A stretch of DNA of 64,000 bases, from assembly GCA_965247665.1 (NCBI GenBank), contig CBDFHH010000004.1:844595-908594 (forward strand), written 5' to 3'. This document shows positions 15,611-34,641 of the stretch, in pieces; position 1 is the first letter of the stretch, and the number at the start of each line of letters is the position of its first letter. Position numbers and translations under genes: made by a program. The stretch is from Alphaproteobacteria bacterium. Its GTDB lineage: Bacteria > Pseudomonadota > Alphaproteobacteria > SHVV01. The notes beneath the pieces are model-generated. The model saw only the letters and a program-made list of their open reading frames with translations. It was not told the origin of the DNA and did not search any database.

Positions 15611-15614
15611 GACT

Positions 15615-20641: not shown

Positions 20642-21682
20642 TCAGGCGGCCGCGCAGGACGGCGCCGTACCGGGATTGGCGAGCCGGTTGAAAGCCGCCA
20701 GCGATGCTTCGATCCGTTCGCGCGGCAGGTTGCGAACGATGAAGATGATGCGCGAACCCCGATCGGCGTCCGGCCACCGGTCGAGATGCGTGGGCGGGTG
20801 GACGACGTGCTGGACGCCGTTGATGACCACCGGCGCGTCGAGGCCGGCGACGCCGAGCATGCCTTTGACCCGCAGCACACTTTCGCCGTGGCGGTTGAGC
20901 AGCATGGTCATCCAGATCCCGAACGCGGTCCAATCCAGGGGCTGCTCGAAACGGAAGTAAAAGGACGAGATCCCGTGGGTGTGATCGTGCGCGAGAGCGT
21001 CGGCCCCCGCCGTGGCGCGGCCGAGCCAGCGATCGACCTCGGAGGCCTTGGCGTCGTCGTCGAACGCATCCTCGATCAGCAGCAATTCGGGCGCGGTATC
21101 GTCCGCCGCTTGGTAAATCGGCGCCGAGCGGTTGAGCCCGCCGAGGCGGTCCTTTAGCGCCCGCAGGTCGGTCTCCGTGCACAGATCGATCTTGGTGACG
21201 ACGATGCGGTCGGCGACCGCCGCCTGCTTGACCGATTCCGGGAACGAATCGAGTTGGCTCGCGCCGTTGACCGCATCGACGACGGTGATCACGTTGCCGA
21301 GGCGGAAATGATGCTGCAGCATCGGTTCGATCAGCACGGTGTAGGCAATCGGCACGGGATCAGCGAGCCCGGATGTTTCGATCACCACCCGGTCGAACGG
21401 CGGCACTTCGCCGCGCTCGCGCTGCGCCCACAGATCGCGCAGCGCGTCCTGCAGGTCGCCGCGGATGGCGCAGCAGACACAGCCATTGTCGAGCAGGAGC
21501 GTGCCCTCGGCGACCGAGCTCAACAGCTGATGGTCGAGCCCGACCTCGCCGAACTCGTTGACCATCACCGCCACGTTCTGCAGCCGCGGCGAGGTCAGCA
21601 GGCGTCGCAATAACGTGGTCTTGCCGCTGCCGAGGAATCCGGTAACGACATTGACCGGTATCAGCTCGCCGTAGCCGGCCAT
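20642..21682 (-). CDS. COG0523/CobW-family G3E GTPase (putative zinc metallochaperone).
   Basis: Walker A VVTGFLGSGKTTLL, CxCC metal motif GCVCCAIRGDL, ETSGLADP, TKIDL; 346 aa. Confidence 0.85.
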   Translation of the reverse strand: MAGYGELIPVNVVTGFLGSGKTTLLRRLLTSPRLQNVAVMVNEFGEVGLDHQLLSSVAEGTLLLDNGCVCCAIRGDLQDALRDLWAQRERGEVPPFDRVVIETSGLADPVPIAYTVLIEPMLQHHFRLGNVITVVDAVNGASQLDSFPESVKQAAVADRIVVTKIDLCTETDLRALKDRLGGLNRSAPIYQAADDTAPELLLIEDAFDDDAKASEVDRWLGRATAGADALAHDHTHGISSFYFRFEQPLDWTAFGIWMTMLLNRHGESVLRVKGMLGVAGLDAPVVINGVQHVVHPPTHLDRWPDADRGSRIIFIVRNLPRERIEASLAAFNRLANPGTAPSCAAA

Positions 21683-22002
21683 CAGCTATGCTCCAGCCCG
21701 GCCAGGAGGTCGGCGTCGAGCGGGTCGCATTCCTTCTTGGCGAGCGCTTCGGCCGCCGCCCACAACTCGGTCAGATTATTTACCAGTTCCGTCTTGCCGG
21801 TATGGCTGCGCAGGATGAATGCGTTGGGCGGCCAATCGGCGAGCGAAAGCCCGTAGAATTTCAGCACCTTGTTGATCAGTTGGGTCCGCTGCTGCCGCTC
21901 GCCGGCGATCGTGGTCGGCGCCTGGGTGCGAAAAGCCTCGGGGTTGCTCGATCGATCGGCCCAGTGACCGCGCCCGCCGAGAACACCGCACAAGCTGCAC
22001 AT
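21682..22002 (-). CDS. Hypothetical small protein with N-terminal MCSLCG (CxxC), translationally coupled to the COG0523 GTPase.
   Basis: 106-aa ORF whose stop overlaps the CobW-family start by 1 nt. No recognised family; weak RBS. Confidence 0.4.
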   Translation of the reverse strand: MCSLCGVLGGRGHWADRSSNPEAFRTQAPTTIAGERQQRTQLINKVLKFYGLSLADWPPNAFILRSHTGKTELVNNLTELWAAAEALAKKECDPLDADLLAGLEHS

Positions 22003-22025
22003 CCCCCCGGCTCCGTCGCTGGGCG

Positions 22026-23084
22026 CTACTCTGCCGCGGTCGCGGTTCCCGTGTCGCGCGGAAAACGCCGCCGAAAGTCTTTGGAGATTTCGTAGAACGT
22101 TGTGAAACGTACGCCGCTATGGTTGACGATATAGTCGTAGAGCCTCTCGAGCATCAGCAGCACTTGTGGGCGACCCGACACGTCGGGGTGGATCGTCATC
22201 GTGAACACGGCATAGTCGTACTCGCGGTAGACCCAATCGAACTGGTCGCGCCACAACTCTTCGATATCCCTCGGGTTGGTGAAACCGTAGCTGTTGGGTG
22301 CGCCCTTGATAAACATCATCGGCGGCAGGTCGTCGGTGTACCAGCTCGCCGGGATGTCGACGAGATCGGTCTCCTCGCCGCGCACCAGCGGAAACATCCA
22401 TTCGCGTGCCTGCTTGGAGTAGTCGATCGGCGTCCAGCTATCGCCGACTCGAACGTAGAACGGAATAAAGTCGTGGTTCATCAGGCTGTGGTCGTATTTG
22501 ATGCCCTTCTTGATCAGCAGCTCGTTGGTCACCGGGCTGAACTCCCACCACGGCGCGACATAGCCCTTGGCCGTGTGGCCCGTCAGTTCACCGATCAAAT
22601 CGATGCACTTGTCGAGCACGTCCTCTTCCTGTTGGGGCGTCATCGAGATCGGGTTCTCGTGCGAGTAGCCGTGCAGCCCGATCTCGTGGCCGGCGTCGAA
22701 CACCTCCTTGCACTGCGAGGGGAAGGTTTCGATCGAATGGCCGGGGATGAACCACGAGGTTTGAATGCCGAAACGATCGAACAGCTTGACCAGACGCGGG
22801 GTACCGACTTCGCCGGCGAACAGACCGCGCGAAATGTCGCAGGGTGAATCCTGACCGCCATAGGAGCCTAGCCAGCCGGCGACCGCGTCGATATCGATAC
22901 CGAAGGCGCATAAGATTTCCTTGCGCCCGCTGCCGGTTGGCTGCGGCCGGCGCGACAGCTCGCCGCCCGGCCGCCGCGCGGCACCGGAAAAAGCCGGGCG
23001 CGGCTGATAACGGTCGCTGCGCTGCGCACGAATGACGCCGGTGCTCGCGCCGGGCACCCGCCGAACCGCAAACTGATCTCTCAT
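22026..23084 (-). CDS. Polysaccharide deacetylase (NodB-homology, CE4) family metal-dependent hydrolase.
   Basis: Motifs [33 protein letters not shown] (His-His metal triad context). Start chosen at the ATG at 23084 with strong RBS GGGGAGGGAAGA; the 25-codon upstream extension in the track was rejected. Confidence 0.7.
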
Positions 23085-23293
23085 TCTTCCCTCCCCGGTA
23101 GGTCTCGGAAGTCGACGGCGGAAGCTGCCCGCTGGCTCCGTGTGTAGCGGTGCCGCCACGGCGAATCAAGCGGCAACGGCTTGAGCTCGTGTACGGGCTC
23201 GCACCTGTCGTGCGCTCTGCTATTATCGCTGCTCGCGAAGGTTCGACATGATCCGCGCCGAACGCGAACAGGAACGCCCAATTGGAGACGGTG

Positions 23294-24004
23294 ATGGTCG
23301 ATTGGGAAAAGGAAACGCGCGAAGATTACAGGCGCAAAGGCCTCGCCGTAAGCTGCGGCTACGGCACCGGTCCGGCGCTTCTCGTGGTCGATTTCATCAA
23401 CGGTTTCACCGATCCGTCGACCCCATTGGGCGGCGATTTCTCAGCTCAAATCGGCGCCACCCAGGAATTGCTGTCGACGTTCCGCGACGCCGGGCTGCCG
23501 ATCGTCTTCACCACCATCGCCTACGAGTCGCACTACCGCGATGCCGGGATGTGGATCAAGAAAGTTCCCTCGCTGGAGATTCTCCGCAAAGGCACGCGCA
23601 TGGTCGAGGTCGACGATCGCATCCGCCCGCGCACCGACGAATATGTCCTTGAGAAGAAATTCGCCAGTTCATTCTTCAAGACCGATCTGGAGAGCTACCT
23701 CAAGGCCCGCGGCGTTGACACGGTGATCATGGTCGGCTGTACCACGAGCGGCTGCGTGCGCGCCTCCGCGATCGATTCGATCTCCTGCGGCTTCCACACC
23801 ATCGTCGTGGCCGAAGCGACCGGAGACAGAGCGCAGGGCCCGCATGAGGCCAATCTGTTCGATATCGAAGCCAAGTATGGTGACGTCGTCTCGTTGCGCG
23901 AGGCGACCGATTACATCAAATCCATCACCAGCGCCGGCGGCTACGCCCAGAAGGTGCAGGACGATTTCCATCGTTGGTGGAATCGACCGGCCGCCAGCGC
24001 TTGA
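23294..24004 (+). CDS. Isochorismatase-family cysteine hydrolase (N-carbamoylsarcosine amidase / CSHase-like), copy A.
   Basis: LLVVDFINGF, FTTIAYES, catalytic-Cys context VMVGCTTSGCVRASAIDS. ATG at 23294 preceded by GGAGACGGTG; the TTG at 23282 in the track is less likely. Confidence 0.85.
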   Translation: MVDWEKETREDYRRKGLAVSCGYGTGPALLVVDFINGFTDPSTPLGGDFSAQIGATQELLSTFRDAGLPIVFTTIAYESHYRDAGMWIKKVPSLEILRKGTRMVEVDDRIRPRTDEYVLEKKFASSFFKTDLESYLKARGVDTVIMVGCTTSGCVRASAIDSISCGFHTIVVAEATGDRAQGPHEANLFDIEAKYGDVVSLREATDYIKSITSAGGYAQKVQDDFHRWWNRPAASA

Positions 24005-24032
24005 ATGACCGCCGCTGGTTAGGACAACGGGT

Positions 24033-24518
24033 ATGGCCGGCGACCGACGCCCTTCATTGTCTTCCGCGTTCGACGATATGCTCGAACGCAATTGGCAAGA
24101 GCTCGACGGTATGTACGCCGGTACCGCCGATAGGACAGGCCGTCGCGAGCCCCGGGCGCCGTCGTTACCGAGCGCCGATTTTCAAACCCCGTTGTCGTCG
24201 GAACGGCCGATCGTGCAGCAGCTCAACGAACGATTCGGCGACAAATGGCGCTACGAGATCACGGACCGTCAGCGCGATGGCGACGACGTGGTCGTGCTAT
24301 GCAAACTGACGCTGCCCGAAAAGAACGTCACCAAAGCGCAATTCGGGCTCGCCCGTATCGGCCGCGCCGGCGGTGGATCGGCAGTCCACGGCAGCGCCGG
24401 GGGCGTGTCGTTTTCGCTGGGCGCGAGCGAATCCGGTGCGCTGGCAGGCGATACCGAGAACGCGGCGTATGAACGTGCGACCGACGACGCCCTCGCCAAA
24501 TGCGCTGCGATGCTGTGA
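24033..24518 (+). CDS. Standalone small protein carrying the Rad52/Mgm101-like domain. This is copy 1 of the ~100-aa domain that is also found fused to both HyuB paralogs.
   Basis: PIVQQLNERFGDKWRYEI...DVVVLCKLTLPEKNVTKAQFGLARIG...(Gly-rich insertion)...AYERATDDALAKCAAML. Same pattern as the N-termini of the proteins at 28216 and 46943: xxNExFG..W-S..V...G.V.V.CKL...G....FG.A...A...ATDxALxKCAA. Confidence 0.5.
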   Translation: MAGDRRPSLSSAFDDMLERNWQELDGMYAGTADRTGRREPRAPSLPSADFQTPLSSERPIVQQLNERFGDKWRYEITDRQRDGDDVVVLCKLTLPEKNVTKAQFGLARIGRAGGGSAVHGSAGGVSFSLGASESGALAGDTENAAYERATDDALAKCAAML

Positions 24519-24561
24519 GCGCGGGGAGTCGCAAGCAACCCCTTGACGATGACGATCGGCA

Positions 24562-25017
24562 ATGCTGCGGCTAAATGAGCCGGCGCCACGCCTGCGCCTG
24601 CGCAATCAGTGCGGCATCGCCACCGGACTTACCGAATTGCACGGCCACATCGTGGTCATGTGGTGGCAGCGCACCTTCGAACATTCCATTGCCGAAATCA
24701 TCGCCAGGTCGTTTCGTGATCGTCACGCCGACCTTACGGCGCGAAACGCGACTATTCTCGGTATCAGCAGCGACCCCTCGGTGCGGATCGCTCGATTCCA
24801 CGAATCCCTCGGACTCCCTTTCGATCTGCTGAGCGATGCCACGGGTGAAGCCGCCGCGGCCTATGGAGCGGCGGATTGGTGGCGGGCCGGCCCCGACTTG
24901 CCGCTAACCTTCGTCATTGACGCCGGCGGGCTGATATGTGCCAGCCACCAAATCGACCGCGGACACGCGAATCATGTCGAGACGCTGCTGGCCGACGTCG
25001 CCCGCGCTGCAAATTGA
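24562..25017 (+). CDS. Peroxiredoxin (Bcp/AhpC-TSA)-like thioredoxin-fold protein lacking the peroxidatic cysteine (degenerate).
   Basis: Collinear with Bcp: APRLRLRNQCGIATGLTELHGHIVVMWW aligns to APDF.L.D..G..V.LSDF.GK.VVLYFYP, and ILGISSDPSVRIARFHESLGLPFDLLSD aligns to VLGVSVDS...KFAEK.GL.FPLLSD. The canonical TPGC is replaced by TFEHSI. Confidence 0.55.
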   Translation: MLRLNEPAPRLRLRNQCGIATGLTELHGHIVVMWWQRTFEHSIAEIIARSFRDRHADLTARNATILGISSDPSVRIARFHESLGLPFDLLSDATGEAAAAYGAADWWRAGPDLPLTFVIDAGGLICASHQIDRGHANHVETLLADVARAAN

Positions 25018-25185
25018 TCGCAAACCGGCCACGCTACGCGTCGCATCGATGATCGTTGTTCCGCTTGCTCCACTCTCGGCGCCCAAGGCCGCGAAATATG
25101 AGCGTGAAGCCGCCGGCCATATTCCGCCGGAGGAAGCGTCCCATACCCGCCGGCAAGGCGGCGGGATGGCGAACCAAGCGCCGCT

Positions 25186-25695
25186 CTAGGACTTCCTCGG
25201 CGGCTGGCGTCGATACTGCCAGCCGTCGCGGAACGCGCGCACCACGTGGTGCAGCAGATAGAACAGGATCGCCAGGATCACCAGCAGGATGATCGATAGC
25301 AGGCGGTCACCGAACCCCGAATCGATGATGGCACCGCCGCTGATAAGATGCTCGCTGAGCATGACAACCGCCTGGAGCGTAGCGCCCGCGAACAGGATCA
25401 CCGCGATCAAGATCGCCACTTGCAGCGTCTCGAAAACCAGCGTTTCGACGTCGAGCTCGGTCACCGGGCGCAAGATGTTGCGGCGGAAGGTCTGCCAGTG
25501 GGCAATGAAGTAGCCGATGACTCCGACCAGCGACGCGAACCAGAAGATCACGTTGTCGCTGCGAATATGGCGGATTCCCTTCGACACATACTCTTCGAAC
25601 GGCTGGTAGAAATACAAGAATATCAACAGGATAATCAGACCCACCAGGAGGATCCAAAGGCGCGGCCGCTGCCAGCTGTCGGAATCTTGTGCCAT
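25186..25695 (-). CDS. Small 4-TM membrane protein, paralog 1 (unknown family; paralog of 42670-43155).
   Basis: Shares W..L..LVG.....L.FLYFYQPF...N.IFW.A...G.IG......ILLSAGATLQ.V....L..G.IDSGFG.RL...VIL with the second copy. Start uncertain; the internal ATG at 25695 was chosen. Confidence 0.5.
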   Translation of the reverse strand: MAQDSDSWQRPRLWILLVGLIILLIFLYFYQPFEEYVSKGIRHIRSDNVIFWFASLVGVIGYFIAHWQTFRRNILRPVTELDVETLVFETLQVAILIAVILFAGATLQAVVMLSEHLISGGAIIDSGFGDRLLSIILLVILAILFYLLHHVVRAFRDGWQYRRQPPRKS

Positions 25696-26148
25696 TCGTG
25701 GAGAACCCGAGGCGTACTGCGAATGCGGTCGGATCGTATACGACGGGGCAGCGGTTTCACAACCCGGGTATGGCATTTGAGAGATTGCGGATTGGCTGGG
25801 TGTCGATTCCGCCAAGTCGGTCTATTCGACGGAGGGGTTTATGGTGGAACGGTTTCGGGAGTGCTTGCCGAGTCGGATGATCTGGGTGCGGAAAATGCGC
25901 CGCGTTACGATCTTCGGGAGCTGGTGTTCATTGCCTTTTAGCCGGCTTGTGAGGCGGGCGGAGCTGCGTTGACATAGCTGAATTCGCGGCCGCCAAGGAG
26001 GATCGCGAAATCGGTCGAAAACCTGTTTAATTGCGTCTTCGGGCGCGCTACAAACGCCTGCTGTTCCGACCCGTTGGGTGATTTCCCGATGCCGTGGTCG
26101 GCGCACACTCCATCGGGGACGCCAAACAAGCGGCGAGGAGAAGGGCGT

Positions 26149-28206
26149 ATGGCGAGTCGCTTGGGGATCGACGTCGGGGGTACCTTCACCGATCTCCTGT
26201 TGTTCAACGAAGCGTCGCGGGAAATCCAGCTGCTCAAAACCCCCTCGACGCCCGAAGATCAGTCGGTGGGTATTCTCACCGGTGTGCGGAAGATCATTGC
26301 CCAGTCCGGGATCTCGGCCGGCGACATCCAGGCGCTGCTGCACGGCACGACCGTCTCGACCAACATCGTGCTCGAGGAGAAGGGCGCTAAGGTTGGCCTG
26401 CTTGTCACCGAGAATTTCGAGCAAATCCTGCACATGGCGCGGTCGCAGACTCCGGGACCGCTGGCCGGCTGGATCATCATGGAAAAGCCCGACCCGCTGG
26501 CCGACCTCGAGCTCACCCGGGGCATCGTCGAACGCATCGATGCGCGCGGCGAAATCGTCACGCCGATCGACGAAGCCGCGGCGCGCCAGTCGATCCGCGA
26601 GTTGATCGAACGCGGCGTCGAGTCGATTACCATCTCGCTGCTGCATTCCTACGCCAATCCGACCCACGAACGGCGCCTCAAAGCGCTGGTGGACGAGATC
26701 GGCCCCGAGGTGCCGGTATCGGTATCGTCGGAGATCCTGCCCGAATTCCGCGAGTATGAGCGCACGCTGGTGACGGTGATGAATGCCTATGTCGGTCCCA
26801 GCATGCGCCGCTACCTGAGCAACCTCGAAGACAAGCTCAAGGGCGTGGAGTTCGCGCCGCACGTCCATATCGTGCGCTCCGACGGGGGACTGATGAGCGT
26901 CCAGCGCGCGTCCGAATCGCCGGTCCATACAATGATGTCGGGACCGGCGGGCGGCGTGTCGGGAGCGGCATTCCTCGCCAATCTGGCCGGCCATCCCAAC
27001 GCCATTGGCTTCGACATGGGCGGCACATCGACCGACGTGTCCGTAATCCAGGACGGCAAGCCCAACATTTCGCGCCAGACCAGCCTCGGCTATTACCCGA
27101 TCAAGGTGCCCTCGGTGGAGGTGCACAGCGTCGGTGCCGGCGGCGGGTCGATCGCGCACGTGCCGATGACCGGGGCGCTACGGGTCGGCCCGGAGAGCGC
27201 CGGTGCGATGCCGGGTCCGGCAAGCTACGGACGCGGCGGCGACAAGCCGACGGTAACCGACGCCAACGTGGTGTTGGGGCGGTTGCTGCCCCACCTGCTG
27301 GGCGGCGAGATGATGCTCGACGTCAACGCCGCGGAAACCGCAGTGTCGCGTATCGGCGGAGCACTCGGCCTCGACGTCAACGCGGCGGCGCAAGGTATCC
27401 TCGACATCGTCAACGAGAACATGTTCGGGGCGTTGCGCCTGGTCACGGTGCAGAAGGGCCTCGACCCGCGCGACTTTGCCTTGGTTGCTTTCGGCGGTGC
27501 CGGGCCGCTGCACGGTAACGCCATCGCCATGCTGGCAGGCTGCTATCCCGTGATCGTGCCGCCCACACCAGGCGTGCTGTCGGCGCTTGGTTTCCTCTAT
27601 TCCGACGTCAAGAACGAATTCGCCCAGACCTATATCCGCAACATCGACGATGTCCGATCCGGCGACGTGAGCGAGGTGCTGTCCCGCCTTGGGCGCGAGG
27701 CGAAGACGTGGCTGCGCGAAGAGGGAATCGGCGAATCGAGCCAGGAATTGCGCTACGAAGCGGACGTGCGGTACTTTCGTCAGGGTTACGAATTTTCACT
27801 GGAGGTCAATCCCGAATCCGTTGGCAACGGGGGCATGCAGAACCTCGCCAGCCGCTTTGGCATCGCCCATGAACGCCTCTATGGCTTCAAGCTGGATGCG
27901 CCGGTGGAGCTGGTCAATCTGCGTGCGATTGGAACTGGAAACGTGATCAAGGTCGAGTTCCCCAAGTTCGAGAAAGAAAGCACCGACGCCAGAGGGGCGA
28001 TCGTCGGTCAGCATCGCACGTCGTTCGACGGCAATTTCGTGGCCGCCAGCGTCTACGACCGTGACCTGCTCAGGGCCGGCAATCAGGTTCCCGGCCCGGC
28101 GATCATCACCCAGAAGGATTCGACGACCGTGATCCATCCCGACCATGTCGGCGCGGTCGATGAGTATCTCAACATTCTTATCAACCCCGTAGGTGGACCG
28201 GCATAG
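26149..28206 (+). CDS. hyuA: Hydantoinase/oxoprolinase A subunit (HyuA; N-methylhydantoinase A-type ATPase of the ASKHA fold), copy 1.
   Basis: MASRLGIDVGGTFTDLLLF... (actin-like ATPase phosphate-1 motif), 685 aa. RBS GAGGAGAAGGG before the ATG at 26149; the upstream 25 codons in the track were rejected. Confidence 0.9.
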   Translation: MASRLGIDVGGTFTDLLLFNEASREIQLLKTPSTPEDQSVGILTGVRKIIAQSGISAGDIQALLHGTTVSTNIVLEEKGAKVGLLVTENFEQILHMARSQTPGPLAGWIIMEKPDPLADLELTRGIVERIDARGEIVTPIDEAAARQSIRELIERGVESITISLLHSYANPTHERRLKALVDEIGPEVPVSVSSEILPEFREYERTLVTVMNAYVGPSMRRYLSNLEDKLKGVEFAPHVHIVRSDGGLMSVQRASESPVHTMMSGPAGGVSGAAFLANLAGHPNAIGFDMGGTSTDVSVIQDGKPNISRQTSLGYYPIKVPSVEVHSVGAGGGSIAHVPMTGALRVGPESAGAMPGPASYGRGGDKPTVTDANVVLGRLLPHLLGGEMMLDVNAAETAVSRIGGALGLDVNAAAQGILDIVNENMFGALRLVTVQKGLDPRDFALVAFGGAGPLHGNAIAMLAGCYPVIVPPTPGVLSALGFLYSDVKNEFAQTYIRNIDDVRSGDVSEVLSRLGREAKTWLREEGIGESSQELRYEADVRYFRQGYEFSLEVNPESVGNGGMQNLASRFGIAHERLYGFKLDAPVELVNLRAIGTGNVIKVEFPKFEKESTDARGAIVGQHRTSFDGNFVAASVYDRDLLRAGNQVPGPAIITQKDSTTVIHPDHVGAVDEYLNILINPVGGPA

Positions 28207-28215
28207 GAGGGCTCC

Positions 28216-30510
28216 GTGGTCGATCTTCATCCCCACGCCAAATCGGTCTCTCTCGACGACCTGCTCAAGGCCAACAAGGATCAGTTCGACAAGATCTTTG
28301 CCCGCCAGATGGACGAGGTCGGTCTGGTCGAGGCGCCGCACCGCCCGGCCACCCAGGAGGATCTCGAATCGGCGAGCCTCAAGGCGCATACCCCGGCCGA
28401 TGACGTTAACGAGATGCTCACCGAACGGTTTGGCGTTGGCTGGTCTTCGGAAGTGGTCGAGCACAAGGTCGGAAGCGGTGTCGTGACCGTGTTGTGCAAG
28501 CTCACGGTCGACGGCGTCTCGAAGATGCAGTTCGGCTCGGCGCGGGCCAATGGCGACGAGGGCCGCGCCCTCCAGCGGGCGACCGACGAGGCGCTGACGA
28601 AATGCGCGGCGCAGTTCGGCAATGGCGGTAACGGGCACACGGCTGATGCACGCGGGACGCCGAGCCCGCAGACCGTGCCGAGATATGGCGAGGCGGAACC
28701 GGCGCCGGCGTCGGGGCGTGCACCGTCGCAGAAGCTCGACACAATTTCGTTGGACATTATCGAGAACGCCCTGCGCAACGCCCGCCATGAGATGGATGCG
28801 GTGCTATTCCGCTCCGCGATGTCGCCGGTGATTCGCGAGCAACACGATGAATTCCCGATGATTACCGATGCCAAAGGCCGCATGATCGTTGGCCAGTTCG
28901 GTTCGTATGTCGTCGAGATGCTCAAGGAGCAGAACATCTCCGTCGCGCCGGGCGACGTGATCCTCAACAACGATCCCTATCTGTGCGGCGGTTCGATAAG
29001 CCACATCAACGACTGGCTGGTGCTCGTGCCGATCTTCCACGAGGACGAACTGGTCGGCTTCAGCTCGATGTTCGGGCACATGATGGATTGCGGCGGCTCG
29101 GTGCCGTGCAGCATGCCCACCGCCGCCACGTCGATCTTCGCCGAGGGTATTCGCATCCCGCCGGTCAAGATCTACGACAAGGGCGAACTCAACCGGGCGG
29201 CGCTCAGCATCATCATGAACAACACGCGCACGCCGGAGATGAACTACAGCGATCTGATGGCGATCATCGCCGGCTGCCGCACCGGCGAGAAACGGGTGGT
29301 CGAGATTTGCGACCGCTTCGGCAAGGAGACTTACAAACAGGCCTGCGAAGCCCTGCTCGAGCGCACCAACCGGGCGATGCGCAAGCTGATCGTGCAGAAC
29401 CTCCCGGAAGAGCCGCAAACCTTCGAGGACGTCATCGACGACGATGGCTGCGGCAACGGCCCCTTCAAGCTGCGCATGACGCTGTGGCGCGAAGGGGAGC
29501 ACGCCTATTTCGACTGGACGGGAACCTCGCCGCAGGCGCCGGGACCGGTGAACTTCTACCTCAACGAGGGCATGTTCAAGATGTTCATCGGCGTCTACCT
29601 GATCATGATCTACGACCCGCAGATCCTGTTCAACGACGGCTTCTATGACTTGATCCATGTCACCATGCCGAAGGGATCGCTGCTGCACCCCGATTTTCCC
29701 GCTGCACTCGGCAACCGCACCCACGCGCTGTCGCGCCAGTTCGACGTGCTCGGCGGCGCGCTGTCGAAGAACGCGCCGCAGATGGCGACCGCGGCCGGCT
29801 ACGGCTCGAGCCCGCACTTCCTCTACTCGGGCGTCGACAAGAAGGGGCGGCCGTTCCAGCTGATGGAGATCCTGTTCGGCGGCATACCGGGCCGGCCGGT
29901 CGGCGACGGCATGGACGGTCATTCCTGGTGGCCGCTGTTTGAGAGCATTCCGACCGAGTATCTCGAGGTCTACTATCCGATGATCATCGAGAACTACGAG
30001 ACGATCTCCGACAGCGGCGGGCCCGGTAAACACCGTGGGGGCAACGGGGTCGAGAAGGTCTATCTCCTGCTCGAGGATGGCGAGATCTCGATCCAGGACG
30101 ACCGCCAGGAATCGCAGCCCTGGGGCATCCTCGGCGGCAAGCCCGGCCAGTGCTCGGACAAGTGGCTGGTTAGGACCGACGGCAATCGCGAGCCGCTCGG
30201 GTCCAAGATCGACAGCTTCAAGGTCAAGGCCGGAGAGCGCGTGATCTTCCGTACCGCCGGGGGCGGCGGCTGGGGCGACGCGCTGGAACGCGATGCGATG
30301 CGGGTGCGCAACGACGTGGCCCGCCATCTCATGTCGGCGGAAGCGGCGCGCGAGCATTATGGCGTGGTGCTCAAGGGCCAGGTGCAGGAGCTCGACATCG
30401 GCGCCACGCAGGAGCTGCGCGGGAGTTTGAAACGAAGCCGCCCGGCGCTGCCGCCGTACGATTTCGGCGAGCGTCGGACGGGAGGAAACGGGGTCGGCGC
30501 GACGGGCTGA
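28216..30510 (+). CDS. hyuB: Hydantoinase/oxoprolinase B subunit (HyuB) with an N-terminal ~140-aa extension containing a Rad52/Mgm101-like domain; copy 1.
   Basis: GTG at 28216 with RBS AGGAGG, 9 bp after the hyuA stop. Residues ~60-135 read NEMLTERFGVGWSSEVVEHKVGSGVVTVLCKLTVDGVSKMQFGSARANGDEGRALQRATDEALTKCAAQFG. A Gly/Pro/Ala linker follows, then the canonical HyuB core begins LDTISLDIIENALRNARHEMDAVLFRSAMSPVIREQHDEF.... There is no stop or plausible internal start between the domains. Confidence 0.88.
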   Translation: MVDLHPHAKSVSLDDLLKANKDQFDKIFARQMDEVGLVEAPHRPATQEDLESASLKAHTPADDVNEMLTERFGVGWSSEVVEHKVGSGVVTVLCKLTVDGVSKMQFGSARANGDEGRALQRATDEALTKCAAQFGNGGNGHTADARGTPSPQTVPRYGEAEPAPASGRAPSQKLDTISLDIIENALRNARHEMDAVLFRSAMSPVIREQHDEFPMITDAKGRMIVGQFGSYVVEMLKEQNISVAPGDVILNNDPYLCGGSISHINDWLVLVPIFHEDELVGFSSMFGHMMDCGGSVPCSMPTAATSIFAEGIRIPPVKIYDKGELNRAALSIIMNNTRTPEMNYSDLMAIIAGCRTGEKRVVEICDRFGKETYKQACEALLERTNRAMRKLIVQNLPEEPQTFEDVIDDDGCGNGPFKLRMTLWREGEHAYFDWTGTSPQAPGPVNFYLNEGMFKMFIGVYLIMIYDPQILFNDGFYDLIHVTMPKGSLLHPDFPAALGNRTHALSRQFDVLGGALSKNAPQMATAAGYGSSPHFLYSGVDKKGRPFQLMEILFGGIPGRPVGDGMDGHSWWPLFESIPTEYLEVYYPMIIENYETISDSGGPGKHRGGNGVEKVYLLLEDGEISIQDDRQESQPWGILGGKPGQCSDKWLVRTDGNREPLGSKIDSFKVKAGERVIFRTAGGGGWGDALERDAMRVRNDVARHLMSAEAAREHYGVVLKGQVQELDIGATQELRGSLKRSRPALPPYDFGERRTGGNGVGATG

Positions 30511-30586: not shown

Positions 30587-33415
30587 ATGCTCGGAACCGT
30601 CATTTCCGTAGTCATCACAGCGATTGTCGTCATCGCAATCGCCTACATCATCTCGATCTGGATCTACAAACGCTCGCCGTCGAACATGGCGTTCATCCGC
30701 ACCGGCTTTCTCGGTACGAAGGTATGCCTCGGACGCGGCGCGATCGTGCTGCCGGTTTTCCACGACGTCTCGTGGGTCTCGCTCGAGACGATTAAGCTGA
30801 TCGTCGGCCGCACCAACGACCGGGCGGTGCTGACCGCCGACAACATCCGGGTCGATATCACCGCCGAGCTCTACACTCATGTCGGCCACACCGAGGCGGA
30901 CATTCTCACCGCCAGCCGCAGCCTCGGCGAGAAAACCTTCGATGCCGAGGGTGTGCGCAACCTGCTTGAAGCCAAGGTGGTCAGCCAGGTCCGCAGCGAC
31001 GCTGCCACCAAAACGCTGAAGGAGCTACACGAAAACCGCGACGCCTTCGCCCGTTCCATCAAAGAGAAGGTGATCGAGAGCTTCCAGGCCAACGGTCTGA
31101 CGCTGGAAGAAGTCACCATCGTGTCGCTCGAGCAGTCGGGCAAGGAATATTTCAAGACCGACAACGTGTTCGACGCCGAGGGTCTCAAGGTCATCACCGA
31201 GATCACCTCGGACGCCAGGCGCAAGGTTCACGAGACCGAGAAGCGCACCGACGTCGCGATCCGCCAGAAGGACCTCGATACCCAGCTCGAAATGCTGATA
31301 ATCGAGAAGAACGAGGCGTTGGCCCGCGCCAGCCAGGACCGCGAAGTGTCCAACGAGCAGGCGCTGCAGCTCTCGGAGAAGCAGAAATACGTGCTCGATC
31401 AGCGCCGCGCGGTCGAGGAGCGCGAAATCGACAACGAGAAGGACCTCGAACGCCTGCGCACTGAGCGCGAAATAGCGATCACCGAAGAGGCGCAAAAGCG
31501 CGAGATCACCGAAATCCAAAAAAGCCTGGCCATCGAACAGGAGCAGCGCGACCGCGAAATCGCGCTGATAGCCAAAGCCAAGGAGGAGGAGCTCTCCAAC
31601 ATCGCCCGCAACCTCGAACTCGAAAAGGCCGAGAAAGACCGGCACATCGAGCTGGTTGGCAAGACGCGCGACGAGGAGCTCGCGGAGATCGATCGAGTGC
31701 TGGCTCGCGAGCGGGCGGAAAAGGAGCGCGAGATCGATCTGTCGGCCAAGGAGCGCGAGCGGCAGCAAACCGATATCGCCCGCCGGACGGAAGTGTTGAA
31801 GTCGGAAGAGCTGGCCCGCGATGAGCGCCACAAGGCGGCGGAGGGGGCTACGATCTTGGTCCGCAAGCGCAGCCTCGACACCAAGCTGGCGATACTGCAG
31901 GTCGAAAAGGACGAGGAATACGCCAAGCTGCTGCAGGATCAAGAGATCTCGAACGAACGCGCGCGCATTCTCAGCGACAAGCAGCGCTTCATCATCGACA
32001 AGCGCTGGGAGGTCGAGCACGAGGAGATCGTCAAGGAGCAAGCGCTCGAGCAGGCCAAAATCCAGAAGGACACGGCGATCATCGAGGAAGCGAAAACTCG
32101 CGAGGCCGCGGACATCCGCCGTACGCTCGCGCGCGAGCAGGAGGAGCGCGACCGCGAGATCGCGCTGCTGGCCAAGGCCGAGGAGGTCGACCGTGCGACC
32201 ACTGCGCGCAGCCGCAAGCGCGAGGAGAACGACCGCGACCGCCAGGTGGCGATCATCGCCAAGGACGAAGAGGTGCGCCGCGCCGAGGTCCGTCAGGCCC
32301 TGGCCGTCGAGCTCGAAGAGCGCGAGCGCGAGATCGCGCTGATCAACAAGGAATCCGAGCGCGAGCTGACCGATATCCAGCGCTATCTCGCGCGCGAGCA
32401 GGAGGAGCGCGACCGCGAGATCACCCTGGCCGCCAAGCTGCGCGAGCTCGAGGCAGCCGAAATCAACCGACTGGAAACCACGGCGGAGCGTGAAAAGGCC
32501 GAACACGGTGCGGAATCAGTGCGCATCGTCGCTGATGCCGAGCGCGAGAAGGAACTCGAGCGGATCAAGGCCGAGCGGGAAGCTACCGCGCGTCGCATCG
32601 ACGAGGAGAACAAGGCCGACATCACGCGCATGCACATGCTGACCCAGTCGGAAGCGCGCAAGCTGGCCTCCGAGCAGGAAGCCGAAGCAACGCTGACCCG
32701 CGCCAAGGCCAACAGCGAGGCGCAGAAGATCACCGCGGAAGGCATCGAGCGCGAGGCCGGCGCCGAGGGCCGCGCCGAGATGGAGATCGAAGCGCTACGC
32801 ACGCAAAACGTGCAGGGCCGGCTGGAGGCGGAGGCGGCGGGCATCGAATCCAAGGCCGATGCGCTCAAGCAGTACAACGAGTCGGCCGCGTTCCTGGAAC
32901 TGGCGCAACTGCACATCGCCGCCGAGCGCGACGTCCACATCGACCAGGCCAAAGCGATGGGCAACGCGCTCAGCCAGGCGCAGATCCGCATGTATGGCGG
33001 CGGCGGCAGCGGCGGCGACGGCACCGTCGATACCATACGCGGTATGTTCACGTCCGGATTCGCGCTCGGCGAAGTCCTGGAAGGCGTGGCCCAGTCGCTG
33101 CCCGAGGGACTGCGGAGCCGGTTCTCGGAAAACGGCATCCGCGGCTTGTTCGGCAAGCCCTACCGCGGCAACGAGCTGAAAGAAGCGGTCGTTGCCCTCG
33201 CCGCCCTGGTGCGAAACCAGATGCGGGCGCGCAAGGATCGCGAAATTCCCTTCGCGGAGGCTGTCGCCAAGCTCGAAGCGGCGGCCGGCGACGATACGGC
33301 GGCGGGCCGCGGCATCGCAATCCTCAGAAACTTTAATGAGAACGGCGTTTTCGACGATGTCCAGTTCGAACAGGTCTGGGCACTGCTTCAGGCAGCCGCC
33401 AAGAACGGTAACTAG
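30587..33415 (+). CDS. Flotillin/SPFH-family membrane scaffold protein (FloT/YqiK-like), unusually long at 942 aa because of an expanded coiled-coil repeat region.
   Basis: N-terminal TM helix (MLGTVISVVITAIVVIAIAYIISIWIY), SPFH domain (FIRTGFLGTKVCLGRGAIVLPVFHDVSWVSLETIKLIV...), then ~600 aa of E/R/A-rich repeats (REQEERDREIALLAKAEE; IEQEQRDREIALIAKAKEE; EEREREIALINKESE...). Strong RBS AAGGAGGAGGGG. Confidence 0.8.
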   Translation: MLGTVISVVITAIVVIAIAYIISIWIYKRSPSNMAFIRTGFLGTKVCLGRGAIVLPVFHDVSWVSLETIKLIVGRTNDRAVLTADNIRVDITAELYTHVGHTEADILTASRSLGEKTFDAEGVRNLLEAKVVSQVRSDAATKTLKELHENRDAFARSIKEKVIESFQANGLTLEEVTIVSLEQSGKEYFKTDNVFDAEGLKVITEITSDARRKVHETEKRTDVAIRQKDLDTQLEMLIIEKNEALARASQDREVSNEQALQLSEKQKYVLDQRRAVEEREIDNEKDLERLRTEREIAITEEAQKREITEIQKSLAIEQEQRDREIALIAKAKEEELSNIARNLELEKAEKDRHIELVGKTRDEELAEIDRVLARERAEKEREIDLSAKERERQQTDIARRTEVLKSEELARDERHKAAEGATILVRKRSLDTKLAILQVEKDEEYAKLLQDQEISNERARILSDKQRFIIDKRWEVEHEEIVKEQALEQAKIQKDTAIIEEAKTREAADIRRTLAREQEERDREIALLAKAEEVDRATTARSRKREENDRDRQVAIIAKDEEVRRAEVRQALAVELEEREREIALINKESERELTDIQRYLAREQEERDREITLAAKLRELEAAEINRLETTAEREKAEHGAESVRIVADAEREKELERIKAEREATARRIDEENKADITRMHMLTQSEARKLASEQEAEATLTRAKANSEAQKITAEGIEREAGAEGRAEMEIEALRTQNVQGRLEAEAAGIESKADALKQYNESAAFLELAQLHIAAERDVHIDQAKAMGNALSQAQIRMYGGGGSGGDGTVDTIRGMFTSGFALGEVLEGVAQSLPEGLRSRFSENGIRGLFGKPYRGNELKEAVVALAALVRNQMRARKDREIPFAEAVAKLEAAAGDDTAAGRGIAILRNFNENGVFDDVQFEQVWALLQAAAKNGN
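32131..32422 (+). repeat. Intragenic direct repeats inside the flotillin gene. For example, a 31-bp exact repeat GCGCGAGCAGGAGGAGCGCGACCGCGAGATC occurs at 32131 and 32392, 261 bp (87 codons) apart and in frame.
   Basis: Nucleotide-identical blocks encode the repeated peptide AREQEERDREI; similar degenerate copies occur throughout 31,300-32,500. Confidence 0.8.
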
Positions 33416-33531: not shown

Positions 33532-34641
33532 ATGCCGGATTACGACGTTGTCCTCGCTCACGTTGACAAGACGTTCGAGGGTGATGTCCGCGCGGTAATC
33601 GACTTCAATGCGGAAATCGAGCATGGCGAGTTCGTGGCCATGCTCGGTCCCAGCGGTTGCGGCAAGACCACCACGCTGCGCATGATCGGCGGCCTCGAGG
33701 AGGTCACCGAAGGCAAGATCTACCTTGCCGGCGAGGATGTTACCGACCTGCCGCCGTCGCACCGCAACACCTCGATGATGTTCCAGAGCTTCGCGCTGTT
33801 TCCGCATCGCACGGTGTACCAGAACGTCGAGTTCAGCCTCAAAATGAAGGGCCAGTCGAAGGACGAGCGCGCGCGCCAAGTGTGGCAGATGCTCGAACTG
33901 GTCGGGCTCGACCCGCTGTCAAACCGCCATCCGCGCGATCTTTCCGGCGGTCAGCAGCAACGTGTGGCGCTGGCGCGAGCGCTGATTAGCAAACCGGTAT
34001 TGCTCTTGCTCGACGAGCCGCTCGGTGCGCTCGACTACAATCTACGTGCGACGATGATGGTCGAGCTCAAGAAGATCCAGCGCGAGACCGGCATTACCTT
34101 CATCATGGTCACTCACTCGCAGCAGGAAGCGATGTCGTTGGCCGACAAGGTGATTGTGATGAGCGACGCGCTGATCCAGCAGACCGGCACCTCGCGCGAA
34201 ATCTACGAAACGCCGCGCACCAAATTCGTCGCCGAGTTCATCGGCAACAACAACATCTTCAACGGCACCATCAAGTCGCGCAGCGGTTCGATCGTGTTCG
34301 TCGAATCCGAGACCAATCTGTTCTACGTGCGGGTGCCGGAATATATGCGGCAGGTCACGATCGGCAGCGCAGCGCACTTCTCGGTGCGCGCCGACCTCGT
34401 GCATACCGGCGACCACCCGGATATGGCCAACAAGGTGGTCGGGTCGTACATCACCACCGAATTCATGGGCTCGCTCGAAACCGACGTGTTCGAGATCGAA
34501 CCCGGGTTGTTCATCCATGTCGAGCAGCACCGCTCGGCCACGGATCGTTCCTACGAGATGGGCGAGCGCGAGGTGGTGTGCTGGCCTGCCGACGCCGGCA
34601 TCCTACTCGATCAGGTAACCGCCGAGTCCGTTTCCAGCTAG
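33532..34641 (+). CDS. ABC transporter ATP-binding protein, PotA/spermidine-putrescine-type (with C-terminal TOBE-like domain).
   Basis: Walker A GPSGCGKTT, LSGGQQQRVALARAL, Walker B LLLLDEPLGALD; 369 aa. It is convergent with the permease/SBP genes of the same transporter type on the minus strand. Confidence 0.85.
   Translation: MPDYDVVLAHVDKTFEGDVRAVIDFNAEIEHGEFVAMLGPSGCGKTTTLRMIGGLEEVTEGKIYLAGEDVTDLPPSHRNTSMMFQSFALFPHRTVYQNVEFSLKMKGQSKDERARQVWQMLELVGLDPLSNRHPRDLSGGQQQRVALARALISKPVLLLLDEPLGALDYNLRATMMVELKKIQRETGITFIMVTHSQQEAMSLADKVIVMSDALIQQTGTSREIYETPRTKFVAEFIGNNNIFNGTIKSRSGSIVFVESETNLFYVRVPEYMRQVTIGSAAHFSVRADLVHTGDHPDMANKVVGSYITTEFMGSLETDVFEIEPGLFIHVEQHRSATDRSYEMGEREVVCWPADAGILLDQVTAESVSS

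Follow-up and report, generated by a model that had tools for sequence, protein, structure and literature searches.

Two diverged HyuAB and amidase modules share one conserved gene island with a Rad52-fold domain and a membrane protein pair in uncultured Alpha- and Gammaproteobacteria

The stretch of DNA analysed here (64,000 nucleotides, hereafter the window) carries, between about 20.6 and 52.6 kb, one conserved island, centred on a dihydropyrimidinase and an ABC importer, in which old, diverged enzyme sets, each with a ring-opening pair and an amidase, travel with a Rad52-fold domain, two membrane proteins and a flotillin. The enzymes are of an ordinary kind; the accessory parts are not. 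The island recurs in well over 100 related loci of uncultured Alpha- and Gammaproteobacteria, the source organisms of which are all uncultured MAGs. A first-pass annotation of the same DNA had drawn attention to a duplicated, diverged gene module; every gene that it named is an open reading frame at, or a few codons from, the place given for it, and its four claims each held on testing, some with the qualifications set out below. The genes of the island and its edges are as follows.

20642-21682, minus strand: CobW/COG0523-type GTPase (Pfam cobW and CobW_C), last of a trio of deacetylase-like, 106-aa and cobW genes.
21682-22002, minus strand: 106-aa protein, between the deacetylase-like gene and cobW.
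22026-23159, minus strand: polysaccharide-deacetylase-fold hydrolase distantly like PuuE allantoinase (Pfam Polysacc_deac_1), divergent from isoA; its first start codon probably lies ahead of the real one.
23282-24004, plus strand: isoA, isochorismatase-family cysteine hydrolase resembling N-carbamoylsarcosine amidase (Pfam PF00857, E 7e-36).
24033-24518, plus strand: free-standing Rad52-fold protein, 161 aa; an N-terminal helix and a disordered linker precede the alpha-beta-beta-beta-alpha core.
24562-25017, plus strand: peroxiredoxin-fold protein without the peroxidatic cysteine (Pfam AhpC-TSA, E 2e-17).
25186-25695, minus strand: 4-TM membrane protein of the copy-1 type, four hydrophobic segments, divergent from hyuA1.
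26149-28206, plus strand: hyuA1, alpha subunit, ATP-dependent hydantoinase/oxoprolinase-type (Pfam Hydant_A_N, Hydantoinase_A, Hydant_A_C).
28216-30510, plus strand: hyuB1, beta subunit; Rad52-fold domain at the N-terminus (about 28222-28614), then a linker, then Pfam Hydantoinase_B from residue 175.
30587-33415, plus strand: flotillin-like protein, 942 aa, with one N-terminal TM segment, an SPFH/Band_7 domain (Pfam Band_7) and a long charged repetitive region.
33532-34641, plus strand: ABC importer ATPase (Pfam ABC_tran), conserved in position.
35667-36494, minus strand: ABC importer permease 1 (Pfam BPD_transp_1).
36502-37485, minus strand: ABC importer permease 2, 327 aa, assigned by position only (no Pfam match at E<=1e-5).
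37616-38950 (start approximate), minus strand: periplasmic substrate-binding protein with a Tat signal (Pfam SBP_bac_8, TAT_signal).
39035-40495 (start approximate), plus strand: dihydropyrimidinase/D-hydantoinase (NCBIfam TIGR02033, 596 bits, above the 393-bit cut-off).
41356-42543, plus strand: Old-yellow-enzyme-type flavin oxidoreductase (Pfam Oxidored_FMN).
42670-43134, minus strand: 4-TM membrane protein of the copy-2 type, 154 aa, four TM segments and basic cytoplasmic loops.
43352-44419, minus strand: 355-aa membrane protein, 10 predicted TM segments.
44670-46943, minus strand: hyuB2, beta subunit; Rad52-fold domain at the N-terminus (about 46683-46943), here lacking the leading helix, and Pfam Hydantoinase_B from residue 183.
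46962-49040, minus strand: hyuA2, alpha subunit (Pfam Hydant_A_N, Hydantoinase_A, Hydant_A_C); the start follows the gene call of an identical contig.
49056-49787, minus strand: isoB, isochorismatase-family hydrolase, paralog of isoA (Pfam PF00857).
49821-50519, minus strand: isoC, more distant isochorismatase-family hydrolase, weakly like biuret hydrolase or RutB (Pfam PF00857).
51385-52620, plus strand: M20 carbamoylase/allantoate-amidohydrolase-type hydrolase at the island edge (NCBIfam NF006769, 646 bits against a 452-bit cut-off).

The same set of parts was first read as occurring twice. An isochorismatase-type amidase, HyuA, HyuB and the 4-TM protein are indeed paired, but the sets are not identical, since within the window the 355-aa membrane protein and isoC belong to copy 2 only, and the free-standing small protein, the peroxiredoxin-like gene and the flotillin to copy 1 only; both copies are present, not as two stand-alone systems but as two arms of a single island. 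The similarities between paired proteins in pairwise BLASTP are far beyond chance: 45% identity for isoA and isoB (E 2e-54), 41% for the copy-1 and copy-2 4-TM proteins (E 3e-30), 39% for hyuA1 and hyuA2 (E 4e-157) and 29% for hyuB1 and hyuB2 (E 9e-82). Such values bear out the earlier statement that these are diverged paralogs rather than recent duplicates, and much too diverged to be assembly duplicates. The same arrangement is also present on independent contigs of other samples and in dozens of other species; nothing was found in favour of chance adjacency or an assembly artefact as the source of the repetition, and this explanation is refuted. In orthologue comparisons, dN/dS is 0.06-0.12 for every part except the peroxiredoxin-like gene, where it is 0.27 (dS is about 1-2, so that the ratios are approximate), which indicates that the small open reading frames are real genes under purifying selection. 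Copy 2 had been described as one apparent operon, which is plausible, but gaps of 250 and 217 nt precede its two membrane genes. A promoter and terminator consensus scan of positions 42400-51500 gave sites no more numerous than in shuffled controls, and at gathering thresholds no Rfam family matched anywhere in the window.

Related loci were collected by way of the 4-TM protein (80 species-representative genome loci) and of the free-standing small protein (29 metagenome loci). An order common to many species runs hyuA1, hyuB1, flotillin, ABC importer, dihydropyrimidinase, 4-TM gene and 355-aa gene, followed by hyuB2-hyuA2 or alternatives. Both modules are contiguous and interleaved in a soil/Xanthobacteraceae clade, and other genomes interleave parts of them, for example in an operon that has isoA and the small protein at its head together with hyuA2, hyuB2 and the 355-aa and 4-TM genes. 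This recurrent order, with the modules contiguous or interleaved, argues for one island and not two systems. Within 10 kb of the 4-TM gene, HyuB is found in 48 of the 80 loci and an isochorismatase-type gene in 50, and the linkages of the 355-aa and 4-TM genes, HyuB and isoA in other genomes support the original view of a functional system as opposed to chance adjacency.

At the centre of the island, dihydropyrimidinase copies about 80% identical to that of the window occur in 59 of 80 related loci and the substrate-binding protein in 67 of 80; the assignment of the second permease rests on an equally unannotated gene of 327-347 aa that, in L001 and L004, has the binding-protein gene on one side and the BPD_transp_1 gene on the other. 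Outside the window, only L001 and L002, two near-identical contigs, have the Old-yellow-enzyme-type gene at this position (L003 stops short of it), and a match to it within 10 kb was found in only 2 of the 80 species-representative loci, at about 26-30% identity and in another position. Towards the edges, the M20 hydrolase also matches TIGR01879, the hydantoinase/carbamoylase family amidase (430 bits, cut-off 204). Most related loci have the deacetylase-like gene upstream of isoA and in divergent orientation; in the window it scores 63 bits against NCBIfam PuuE allantoinase, well under the cut-off. The trio to which it belongs recurs in L007/L008 and L119, and the position of the 106-aa gene, the product of which has no Pfam match, is filled there by genes of 111 aa (L007) and 108 aa (L119).

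The closest solved relatives of isoA and HyuB1 are N-carbamoylsarcosine amidohydrolase (26st_A, E 3e-70) and N-methylhydantoinase (7hk5, E 4e-72), the two enzymes of the creatinine/N-methylhydantoin pathway. The island resembles that pathway in encoding the ATP-dependent N-methylhydantoinase (HyuA/HyuB) and N-carbamoylsarcosine amidase families side by side, with a sarcosine-oxidase-like flavoenzyme pair about 6 kb upstream; it differs in the absence of creatinine deaminase and creatininase from the window, in its two diverged enzyme sets, in the extra Rad52-fold domain of its HyuB, and in the membrane proteins and flotillin of the cluster. To our knowledge such accessories have not been described for the classical creatinine pathway, and we found no literature on Rad52 with hydantoinase or oxoprolinase, or on flotillin with hydantoinase. 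IsoC is 28% identical to both isoA and isoB in pairwise BLASTP, and among solved structures it comes closest to biuret hydrolase and RutB (about E 2e-13 each). Like the hydantoin-utilisation (hyu) and reductive pyrimidine clusters, which combine a D-hydantoinase/dihydropyrimidinase with a carbamoylase and a transporter, the island has an uptake system, an M20 carbamoylase-type hydrolase and a dihydropyrimidinase that exceeds its equivalog cut-off. Here, though, these make up just the core, to which ATP-dependent HyuAB, cysteine hydrolases and uncharacterised accessory genes are added. The best NCBIfam matches of both subunit pairs are to caprolactamase CapA/CapB and other ATP-dependent lactamases, and CapA/CapB has the same subunit architecture as the HyuA/HyuB of the island (PMC8453981). 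Scores of 240-580 bits against a caprolactamase cut-off of 1000 (533 for hyuA1 and 576 for hyuA2 with the alpha model) indicate that these are not orthologues, and in general the HyuAB scores fall far short of the NCBIfam equivalog thresholds set for characterised enzymes. In HyuB1 and HyuB2 the match to the caprolactamase beta model (577 positions) does not start before about residue 175-182, and Hydantoinase_B likewise begins late in both, so that each HyuB has an N-terminal extension that these models leave uncovered.

This extension is the small domain, which thus occurs three times in the window. The free-standing 161-aa protein aligns with the extension of HyuB1 at 31% identity (E 1e-14) and with that of HyuB2 at 28% (E 3e-4) in pairwise BLASTP, and a family HMM detects the N-termini of HyuB1 (E 2.5e-27) and HyuB2 (E 1.5e-13). 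The likeness to the Rad52 N-terminal domain/annealase superfamily (Rad52, Mgm101, Sak) consists of a predicted three-stranded sheet crossed by a long helix and of two short motifs, LNERFG-DKW, which aligns with ANEMFGYNGW, and ATDEALTKCAAQFGN, which by our own inspection aligns with AVTDGLKRALRSFGN. The AlphaFold2 core has a pLDDT of 85-90. The domain is mobile: it is N-terminal in HyuB in the window, L007, L010-L012 and L083, C-terminal, fused in frame, in about 25 other species, and free-standing directly after an isoA-type gene in all 28 metagenome loci (of 29) that have upstream sequence, as well as in L120. HyuB is also present in 28 of 28 genome loci with the domain, and in L119, a distant member, the domain is still near HyuAB and a deacetylase-like gene. 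A third type of HyuAB, present in many loci, is without it, and the domain is therefore not required by that enzyme class in general. The sole apparent fusion to an amidase domain (P0279) looks like a frameshift artefact.

One alternative is that the domain retains nucleic-acid binding, for instance of the mRNA or DNA of its own operon for regulation, or as a link between enzyme and nucleoid. The best structural matches of the model are ssDNA annealing proteins, followed by dsRNA-binding domains; the family gives marginal matches to Pfam Rad52_Rad22, all under the gathering threshold (E 0.0099 for the HyuB1 N-terminus, below cut-off); and of the conserved arginines (R67, R73, R79-81, R106) several lie on the sheet, where they could bind nucleic acid or another anion. 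Against this, the beta-hairpin that precedes the sheet and forms the DNA-binding element of the Rad52 superfamily (PMC11783212) is absent from the AlphaFold2 model, and the groove residues K152, R153 and R156 of RAD52 are not conserved, the matching positions being respectively mostly Ala, Lys/Arg/Asn, and a mixture of Glu, Ala and Arg in similar numbers. The core has a median net charge of -2, slightly acidic on average. These three features argue against a role on DNA; unlike members of the superfamily, moreover, the domain is always within or adjoining a catabolic enzyme, and no recombination or phage genes were linked to it in the related genome and metagenome loci examined. We consider retained nucleic-acid binding unlikely, and infer that the small domain is a protein-assembly module rather than a DNA-binding one.

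The domain also differs from the Rad52 superfamily in a near-invariant cysteine, Cys157, present in 97 of 99 family members (Cys90 is present in 56 of 99), which a pure scaffolding role leaves unexplained. That the domain is instead a redox-active, metal-binding or covalent-carrier subunit acting through this cysteine, perhaps with a peroxiredoxin-type neighbour, would be in keeping with the peroxiredoxin-fold gene placed after that of the free-standing protein in the window and, of the related loci examined, in L007/L008 and 10 of the 29 metagenome loci, and with five distant loci whose orthologues have an in-frame TGA, probably encoding selenocysteine, at the peroxidatic position. But the partner is missing from most loci, and the gene in the window has lost the catalytic residue (the motif WWQRTFEHSIAE has His where Cys is expected) and shows relaxed constraint at its approximate dN/dS of 0.27. 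We also know of no mechanism in the HyuAB or isochorismatase-type families that requires a thiol carrier, and hold a cysteine-based function to be doubtful in comparison with assembly.

Neither the 4-TM nor the 355-aa protein matches a curated family. The 4-TM family had been noted as lacking any recognised assignment, and it has no Pfam or NCBIfam match; the 483 listed homologues of the copy-2 protein are all unnamed or hypothetical proteins, none with a functional name or a Pfam match. A search of genomes gave this protein at least 164 species-level hits. Of the 80 loci, 74 have enough flank to show what lies upstream of the 4-TM gene, and in 72 of these the 355-aa gene is there in the same orientation. 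In 33 of 80 an amidase-signature amidase gene stands between the two, stop and start codons overlapping, an arrangement that ties the membrane pair to amide hydrolases. The copy-1 4-TM gene is kept beside hyuA1 (L007, L065, L066, L085, L094, L106, L108, L114), and wherever the flank of a related locus reaches far enough, the flotillin is directly 3' of hyuB1 and in the same orientation. It is conceivable, if improbable, that the membrane proteins and flotillin work apart from the enzymes and are syntenic only as transport or regulatory components of one nutrient-uptake island. The expected association of the membrane genes with HyuAB elsewhere does exist, but the most constant partners of the copy-2 4-TM gene are the 355-aa gene and the dihydropyrimidinase and importer unit, all linked to it more often than HyuB, and what lies upstream of the 355-aa gene varies (hyuAB, a Sua5-like gene or a divergent isoA-hyuAB). 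The inserted amidase, the constancy of the copy-1 4-TM gene and flotillin beside hyuA1 and hyuB1, and the retention of a diverged second 4-TM paralog with the second enzyme module speak against such a separation. We know of no membrane partners reported for CapAB. AmiS and UreI, the 6 TM channels of amidase and urease operons, offer an analogy only: they too are small integral membrane proteins inside operons for amide-hydrolysing enzymes, but the island proteins have no sequence or family match to them and have 4 and 10 TM segments.

With middling confidence, we interpret the island as a catabolic system for cyclic amides or ureides, in which the Rad52-fold domain assembles proteins and the membrane pair acts as a channel or anchor. 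The substrates would be compounds of the hydantoin, N-methylhydantoin or dihydropyrimidine type. Around a centre of importer and dihydropyrimidinase, with an anciently duplicated module on either side, the ring would be opened by an ATP-dependent HyuA/HyuB hydrolase of the N-methylhydantoinase type, one per module, and the carbamoyl group of the opened ring removed by one or two N-carbamoylsarcosine-amidase-type cysteine hydrolases per module. The Rad52-fold domain, of about 100 residues, would dock HyuB to the amidase, probably through self-association as in Rad52-type domains. The 10-TM and 4-TM proteins may form a membrane channel or anchor for a small polar compound that the amide-hydrolysing enzymes consume or release, analogous to AmiS/UreI, and the flotillin, probably co-transcribed with hyuA1 and hyuB1, may organise the complex at the membrane beside the importer.

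The window, which has a GC content of 62% and is densely coding, contains between about 20.6 and 52.6 kb an island in which one set of parts occurs twice, as the first-pass annotation had claimed; the genes were confirmed at their coordinates and the enzyme domains by Pfam.

Genes of the island, with window coordinates and strand
20642-23159, minus: trio ahead of copy 1, a polysaccharide-deacetylase-fold hydrolase, a 106-aa gene and CobW
23282-24004, plus: copy 1, isoA, an isochorismatase-family hydrolase
24033-24518, plus: copy 1, free-standing small protein of 161 aa
24562-25017, plus: copy 1, peroxiredoxin-fold gene
25186-25695, minus, opposite to the rest of copy 1: 4-TM gene of copy 1
26149-28206, plus: copy 1, hyuA1
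28216-30510, plus: copy 1, hyuB1
30587-33415, plus: copy 1, flotillin of 942 aa
33532-34641: ABC ATPase, between the copies
between the copies: two permeases
between the copies: Tat-signal binding protein
between the copies: dihydropyrimidinase, above the TIGR02033 equivalog cut-off
between the copies: old-yellow-enzyme-type reductase
42670-43134, minus: 4-TM gene of copy 2, 154 aa
43352-44419, minus: copy 2, 355-aa membrane gene
44670-46943, minus: copy 2, hyuB2
46962-49040, minus: copy 2, hyuA2
49056-49787, minus: copy 2, isoB
49821-50519, minus: copy 2, isoC
past copy 2: M20 carbamoylase-type hydrolase

The pairs had been described as diverged rather than recent, and BLASTP identities of 45% (isoA/isoB), 41% (the 4-TM pair), 39% (HyuA) and 29% (HyuB) agree with this; the small protein in turn matches the N-terminal extensions of HyuB1 (E 1e-14) and HyuB2 (E 3e-4). 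Judged on these comparisons of sequence, copies 1 and 2 are old paralogs, and their repetition is far beyond chance. The dN/dS check proposed for the paralog pairs was done on orthologues, from the related loci L007 (copy 1) and L010 (copy 2), since paralogs only 29-45% identical have reached saturation at synonymous sites. With dS of about 1-2 the ratios are approximate: every gene for an enzyme, a membrane protein or the small domain gives 0.06-0.12, and the peroxiredoxin-like gene 0.27. By this measure the genes compared are real and constrained. Copy 2 had also been read as one apparent operon; its genes do share a strand, and a promoter/terminator scan gave no excess of sites over shuffled controls. 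At Rfam gathering thresholds, the whole window yielded no riboswitches or other RNAs that would hint at a substrate.

The case for one functional system comes from gene order. Scanning a genome collection with the 4-TM family returned at least 164 species-level relatives, and 80 loci were inspected with 10-kb flanks, all of them from uncultured MAGs of mostly marine or soil Alphaproteobacteria, some Gammaproteobacteria and one SAR324. The copy-2 4-TM gene is accompanied by the 355-aa gene, upstream and on the same strand, in 72 of the 74 loci with enough flank, and by the binding protein in 67, dihydropyrimidinase in 59, an isochorismatase-type gene in 50 and HyuB in 48 of the 80. On the side of copy 1, flotillin lies immediately 3' of hyuB1 in every related locus whose flank is long enough. 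The gene set upstream of the 355-aa gene comes in three variants, i.e., hyuA2-hyuB2, a 243-aa Sua5/YrdC-like gene, either alone or joined by an isochorismatase-type gene (35 loci, e.g., L004 7385-8116), and a divergently transcribed isoA-hyuA-hyuB set. An amidase-signature amidase is inserted between the 355-aa and 4-TM genes in 33 of the 80 genome loci (e.g., L014 8507-9922, L017 8489-9922, and the same position in L020 and L063), its start codon overlapping the stop of the 355-aa gene; it is AtzE/allophanate-hydrolase-like by NCBIfam, with scores below the cut-offs. In a soil/Xanthobacteraceae clade (L065, L066, L085, L097) both modules are contiguous, in the order hyuB1-hyuA1, 4-TM, deacetylase-like, isoA, small protein, hyuA2, hyuB2, 355-aa and second 4-TM. 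This contiguity and the recurring order support the functional system that the first-pass annotation had argued for from conserved neighbourhood, and they make it a single system instead of two.

Other features of these loci deserve a record. The 243-aa protein, whose match to Sua5/YciO/YrdC is weak, often stands in place of HyuAB before the 355-aa gene, usually with an isochorismatase-type gene; YrdC-like domains produce carbamoyl- or carboxy-adenylates, and the protein may provide an alternative ATP-dependent step on a carbamoyl compound. A 40-aa ORF called between the membrane genes in L004 was dismissed as a gene-calling artefact, having no counterpart in the window. Two near-identical contigs from other samples carry mobile/defence-type genes between the old-yellow-enzyme gene and dihydropyrimidinase (L001 12205-15447 and L002 11974-19160), including Fic, a T1RH-like_C-domain gene (PF11867), an IS66 transposase and a DruA-domain gene, which are missing from the window at 40500-41350; their 4-TM, HyuAB and isoC genes are identical to those of the window and the remaining island genes 97-99% identical. 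This spot is an insertion hot spot.

The enzymes of the island are of a known kind, and so is its hydantoin/pyrimidine core. Both HyuA/HyuB pairs, with spacings of 9 and 18 nt between the genes, carry the expected Pfam domains (Hydant_A_N, Hydantoinase_A and Hydant_A_C in alpha, Hydantoinase_B in beta; E 1e-83 to 1e-155), and Hydantoinase_B begins only at residue 175 of HyuB1 and 183 of HyuB2. The closest solved relative of HyuB1 is the N-methylhydantoinase 7hk5 (E 4e-72, 247 bits), followed by 6yra_B, deposited as 'Hydantoinase', and then by acetophenone and acetone carboxylases. No NCBIfam equivalog threshold is reached by the HyuAB proteins or the isochorismatase-type genes; the caprolactamase alpha model gives 533 and 576 bits and the beta model 242 and 250, where 1000 bits would be needed. 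The dihydropyrimidinase does reach its curated equivalog, at 596 bits against a TIGR02033 cut-off of 393.

PF00857 is found in isoA, isoB and isoC, and the isochorismatase-type translations contain VVDF, KKFASSFF and TSGCV-type motifs, which we take to hold the Asp-Lys-Cys catalytic residues. Among solved structures the best relatives of isoA are two N-carbamoylsarcosine amidohydrolases (E 3e-70 for the top structure, 26st_A, and E 3e-35), with maleamate-amidase-like structures ranked between them; 1nba was also matched. The nearest solved relatives of isoC are biuret hydrolase and RutB, which it resembles weakly (about E 2e-13). N-methylhydantoinase and N-carbamoylsarcosine amidase are known, in accord with the literature found, as the second half of creatinine degradation, and the island has the same pairing of enzyme families, seen here at the level of genes; no creatinine deaminase or creatininase lies within the window. 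About 6 kb upstream (13932-16787, minus strand) are a DAO-type FAD oxidoreductase and a Pyr_redox_2 protein with a sarcosine-oxidase A3 domain, a pair that resembles heteromeric sarcosine or opine oxidases and that could plausibly consume, by oxidation, a sarcosine-like product or N-methyl amino acid from the amidases.

The trio ahead of copy 1 is kept in L007 (6582-9073) and L119 (3258-5658) as a deacetylase-fold hydrolase, a protein of about 106-111 aa that lacks annotation and begins MCSLCG, and a CobW-type metallochaperone GTPase, divergent from isoA or from the small-protein gene; its composition suggests that a metal-dependent hydrolase is served here by a metal-insertion factor of its own. 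The space from isoC to the M20 gene is filled by a DUF1194/VWA-domain ORF (50353-51336, minus strand; Pfam E 4e-61), which overlaps isoC by 166 nt in a different reading frame and is absent from the gene calls of the identical public contigs L001-L003; gene decay or a wrongly set end may explain it. The left end of the window, with a GntR regulator, an M20 hydrolase, a luciferase-like monooxygenase, a PnrA-type nucleoside ABC system and a xanthine-dehydrogenase-family enzyme, may be of different origin, third-position GC being about 0.56-0.65 in the first 15 kb (1-15500) versus about 0.75-0.88 from 18 kb on.

Less ordinary than the enzymes is the small domain that precedes Hydantoinase_B in both HyuB proteins and forms the free-standing protein. 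An exhaustive profile search gathered 513 clusters at 50% identity, mostly free-standing proteins of 140-200 aa with some HyuB fusions. When every reading frame of the retrieved loci was scanned with a family HMM, HyuB carried the domain at its N-terminus in the window, L001-L003, L007, L010-L012 and L083, and at its C-terminus, in frame, in about 25 further species. As a free-standing protein it lies immediately 3' of a gene of the isoA type in each of the 28 informative metagenome loci, retrieved with a narrow alignment of the free-standing small protein, and in L120; in the distant member L119 it is beside a deacetylase-like gene, near HyuAB. HyuB is present in every genome locus that has the domain. 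With the same HMM over the same loci, a third type of HyuAB was found to lack it, and the domain is therefore an accessory feature rather than part of the catalytic core. Mobility of this sort is classical evidence for physical joint action of the partners. An apparent isochorismatase fusion to the domain (P0279) was discarded, its linker being arginine-rich and out-of-frame-looking and the N-terminal helix motif missing.

As modelled by AlphaFold2, the free-standing protein consists of an N-terminal helix (10-31), a disordered linker and a confident core (pLDDT 85-90) with a helix at 59-68, strands at 73-82, 85-94 and 99-108, and a helix at 138-160, i.e., the three-stranded beta-sheet bridged by an alpha-helix of the Rad52/SSAP superfamily. 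That superfamily is defined by this motif together with a beta-hairpin motif, and hairpin and sheet form the DNA-binding groove (PMC11783212). The predicted small domain shares the sheet and bridging helix but not the hairpin: in the model residues 32-56, before the helix at 59-68, are disordered (pLDDT <50), and the sole extra element is a low-confidence glycine-rich insertion past strand 3. Sequence comparisons give faint matches. Neither the small protein, the two HyuB extensions nor the two membrane proteins match anything in Pfam or NCBIfam at curated thresholds, or even at E up to 10, apart from sub-threshold hits to Rad52_Rad22 (16.2 bits for the HyuB1 N-terminus and 19.5 for family member P0257, against a 20.3-bit cut-off), which appear at E<=1 in only 3 of 99 family members. 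Searched against PDB sequences, the family profile gave insignificant matches only (best MP18, E 0.23), and hhalign against human RAD52 (identical to 1kn0_A) gave a probability of about 4-6%, aligning only the short stretch LNERFG-DKW with ANEMFGYNGW, in the topologically expected place. In a motif alignment made by eye, the columns corresponding to human K152, R153 and R156 hold, respectively, mostly Ala; Lys/Arg/Asn; and Glu/Ala/Arg about equally, apparently without conservation of the basic character. Cys157 is conserved in 97 of 99 members, several arginines are conserved as well, and the median net charge of the core is -2. On these grounds we describe the domain, as modelled, as having a Rad52-like fold and do not file it as an annealase.

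That the 4-TM family had no recognisable assignment holds up, since none of the 483 homologues listed bears a functional name or a Pfam domain; the same is true of the 269 homologues listed for the 355-aa family. Hydropathy gives 4 and 10 TM segments, respectively, and neither protein has a profile or confident fold match to AmiS/UreI, TMEM175, TctB/DctQ or other transporter or channel families. Because the pair is constantly inside or beside operons for amide-hydrolysing enzymes, two roles suggest themselves, a membrane anchor or, by analogy with AmiS/UreI, a channel for small amide, ureide or ammonium species. The flotillin corresponds to the SPFH description of an N-terminal membrane anchor (one TM segment at 6-24), a Band_7 domain (residues 46-181, E 5e-13) and a long coiled-coil region, the remainder holding 349 charged residues.

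The peroxiredoxin-fold gene (AhpC/TSA domain, E 2e-17) has no peroxidatic Cys, its T-P-x-C motif reading TFEHS with His for Cys. Five distant orthologous loci (L093 7475-7861, L094 7466-7900, L104 1384-1818, L106 7491-7928, L107 683-1117) have an in-frame TGA at the peroxidatic position (WWYPKADTPG*T), with the frame conserved beyond it. From about 17 nt past the TGA, L106 and L107 contain a perfect 7-bp GC-rich hairpin (GGGGTTC...GAACCCC), and in L093, L094 and L104 the stem at this position is shorter and imperfect. To judge from these sequences, the gene looks like a selenocysteine peroxiredoxin that the lineage of the window has lost or let degenerate.

The mechanism that we propose builds on the observed gene content, synteny, fusions and predicted fold of the island. 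Substrate would be taken up via the ABC system; rings would be opened without ATP by dihydropyrimidinase, and possibly also by the deacetylase-fold hydrolase, and with ATP by the two putative HyuAB enzymes; and the carbamoyl group would then be removed by the cysteine hydrolases and the M20 enzyme. For the accessory parts we infer that the Rad52-fold domain would tie HyuB to the amidase, perhaps in the form of a ring, and that this assembly would be brought to the membrane by flotillin and the 10-TM/4-TM proteins. The enzyme part taken alone is very probable, and the overall picture of a catabolic island with accessory roles has roughly even chances. A bolder reading, which we consider improbable, is that the domain is a repurposed ring-forming module whose HyuB-fused and amidase-linked free copies co-assemble, giving with flotillin and the 10-TM/4-TM pair a membrane-attached multi-enzyme compartment in which the uptake of cyclic ureides would be coupled to their ATP-dependent ring opening and their decarbamoylation; if true, this would be an unrecognised way to organise catabolism, and the Rad52 fold would have its first role apart from nucleic acids. 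Nothing turned up in full-text searches that paired Rad52 with hydantoinase or oxoprolinase, or flotillin with hydantoinase, and the curated libraries searched do not describe the Rad52-fold accessory domain, the two membrane families or the flotillin linkage.

ATP-dependent hydantoinases and lactamases are usually regarded as simple alpha-beta enzymes and are of biotechnological interest, e.g., for lactam and nylon-monomer hydrolysis and creatinine assays. Here a widespread lineage of such enzymes, in marine, sponge-associated and soil Proteobacteria, bears a mobile extra domain with the predicted fold of a DNA-annealing protein, and is accompanied by flotillin and two membrane-protein families without any annotation. 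If the domain binds nucleic acid, it would make an unusual direct link from a catabolic enzyme to gene regulation; if it is an assembly module, it would extend the known roles of the Rad52 fold and open a way to study the processing of dissolved organic nitrogen heterocycles at the membrane.
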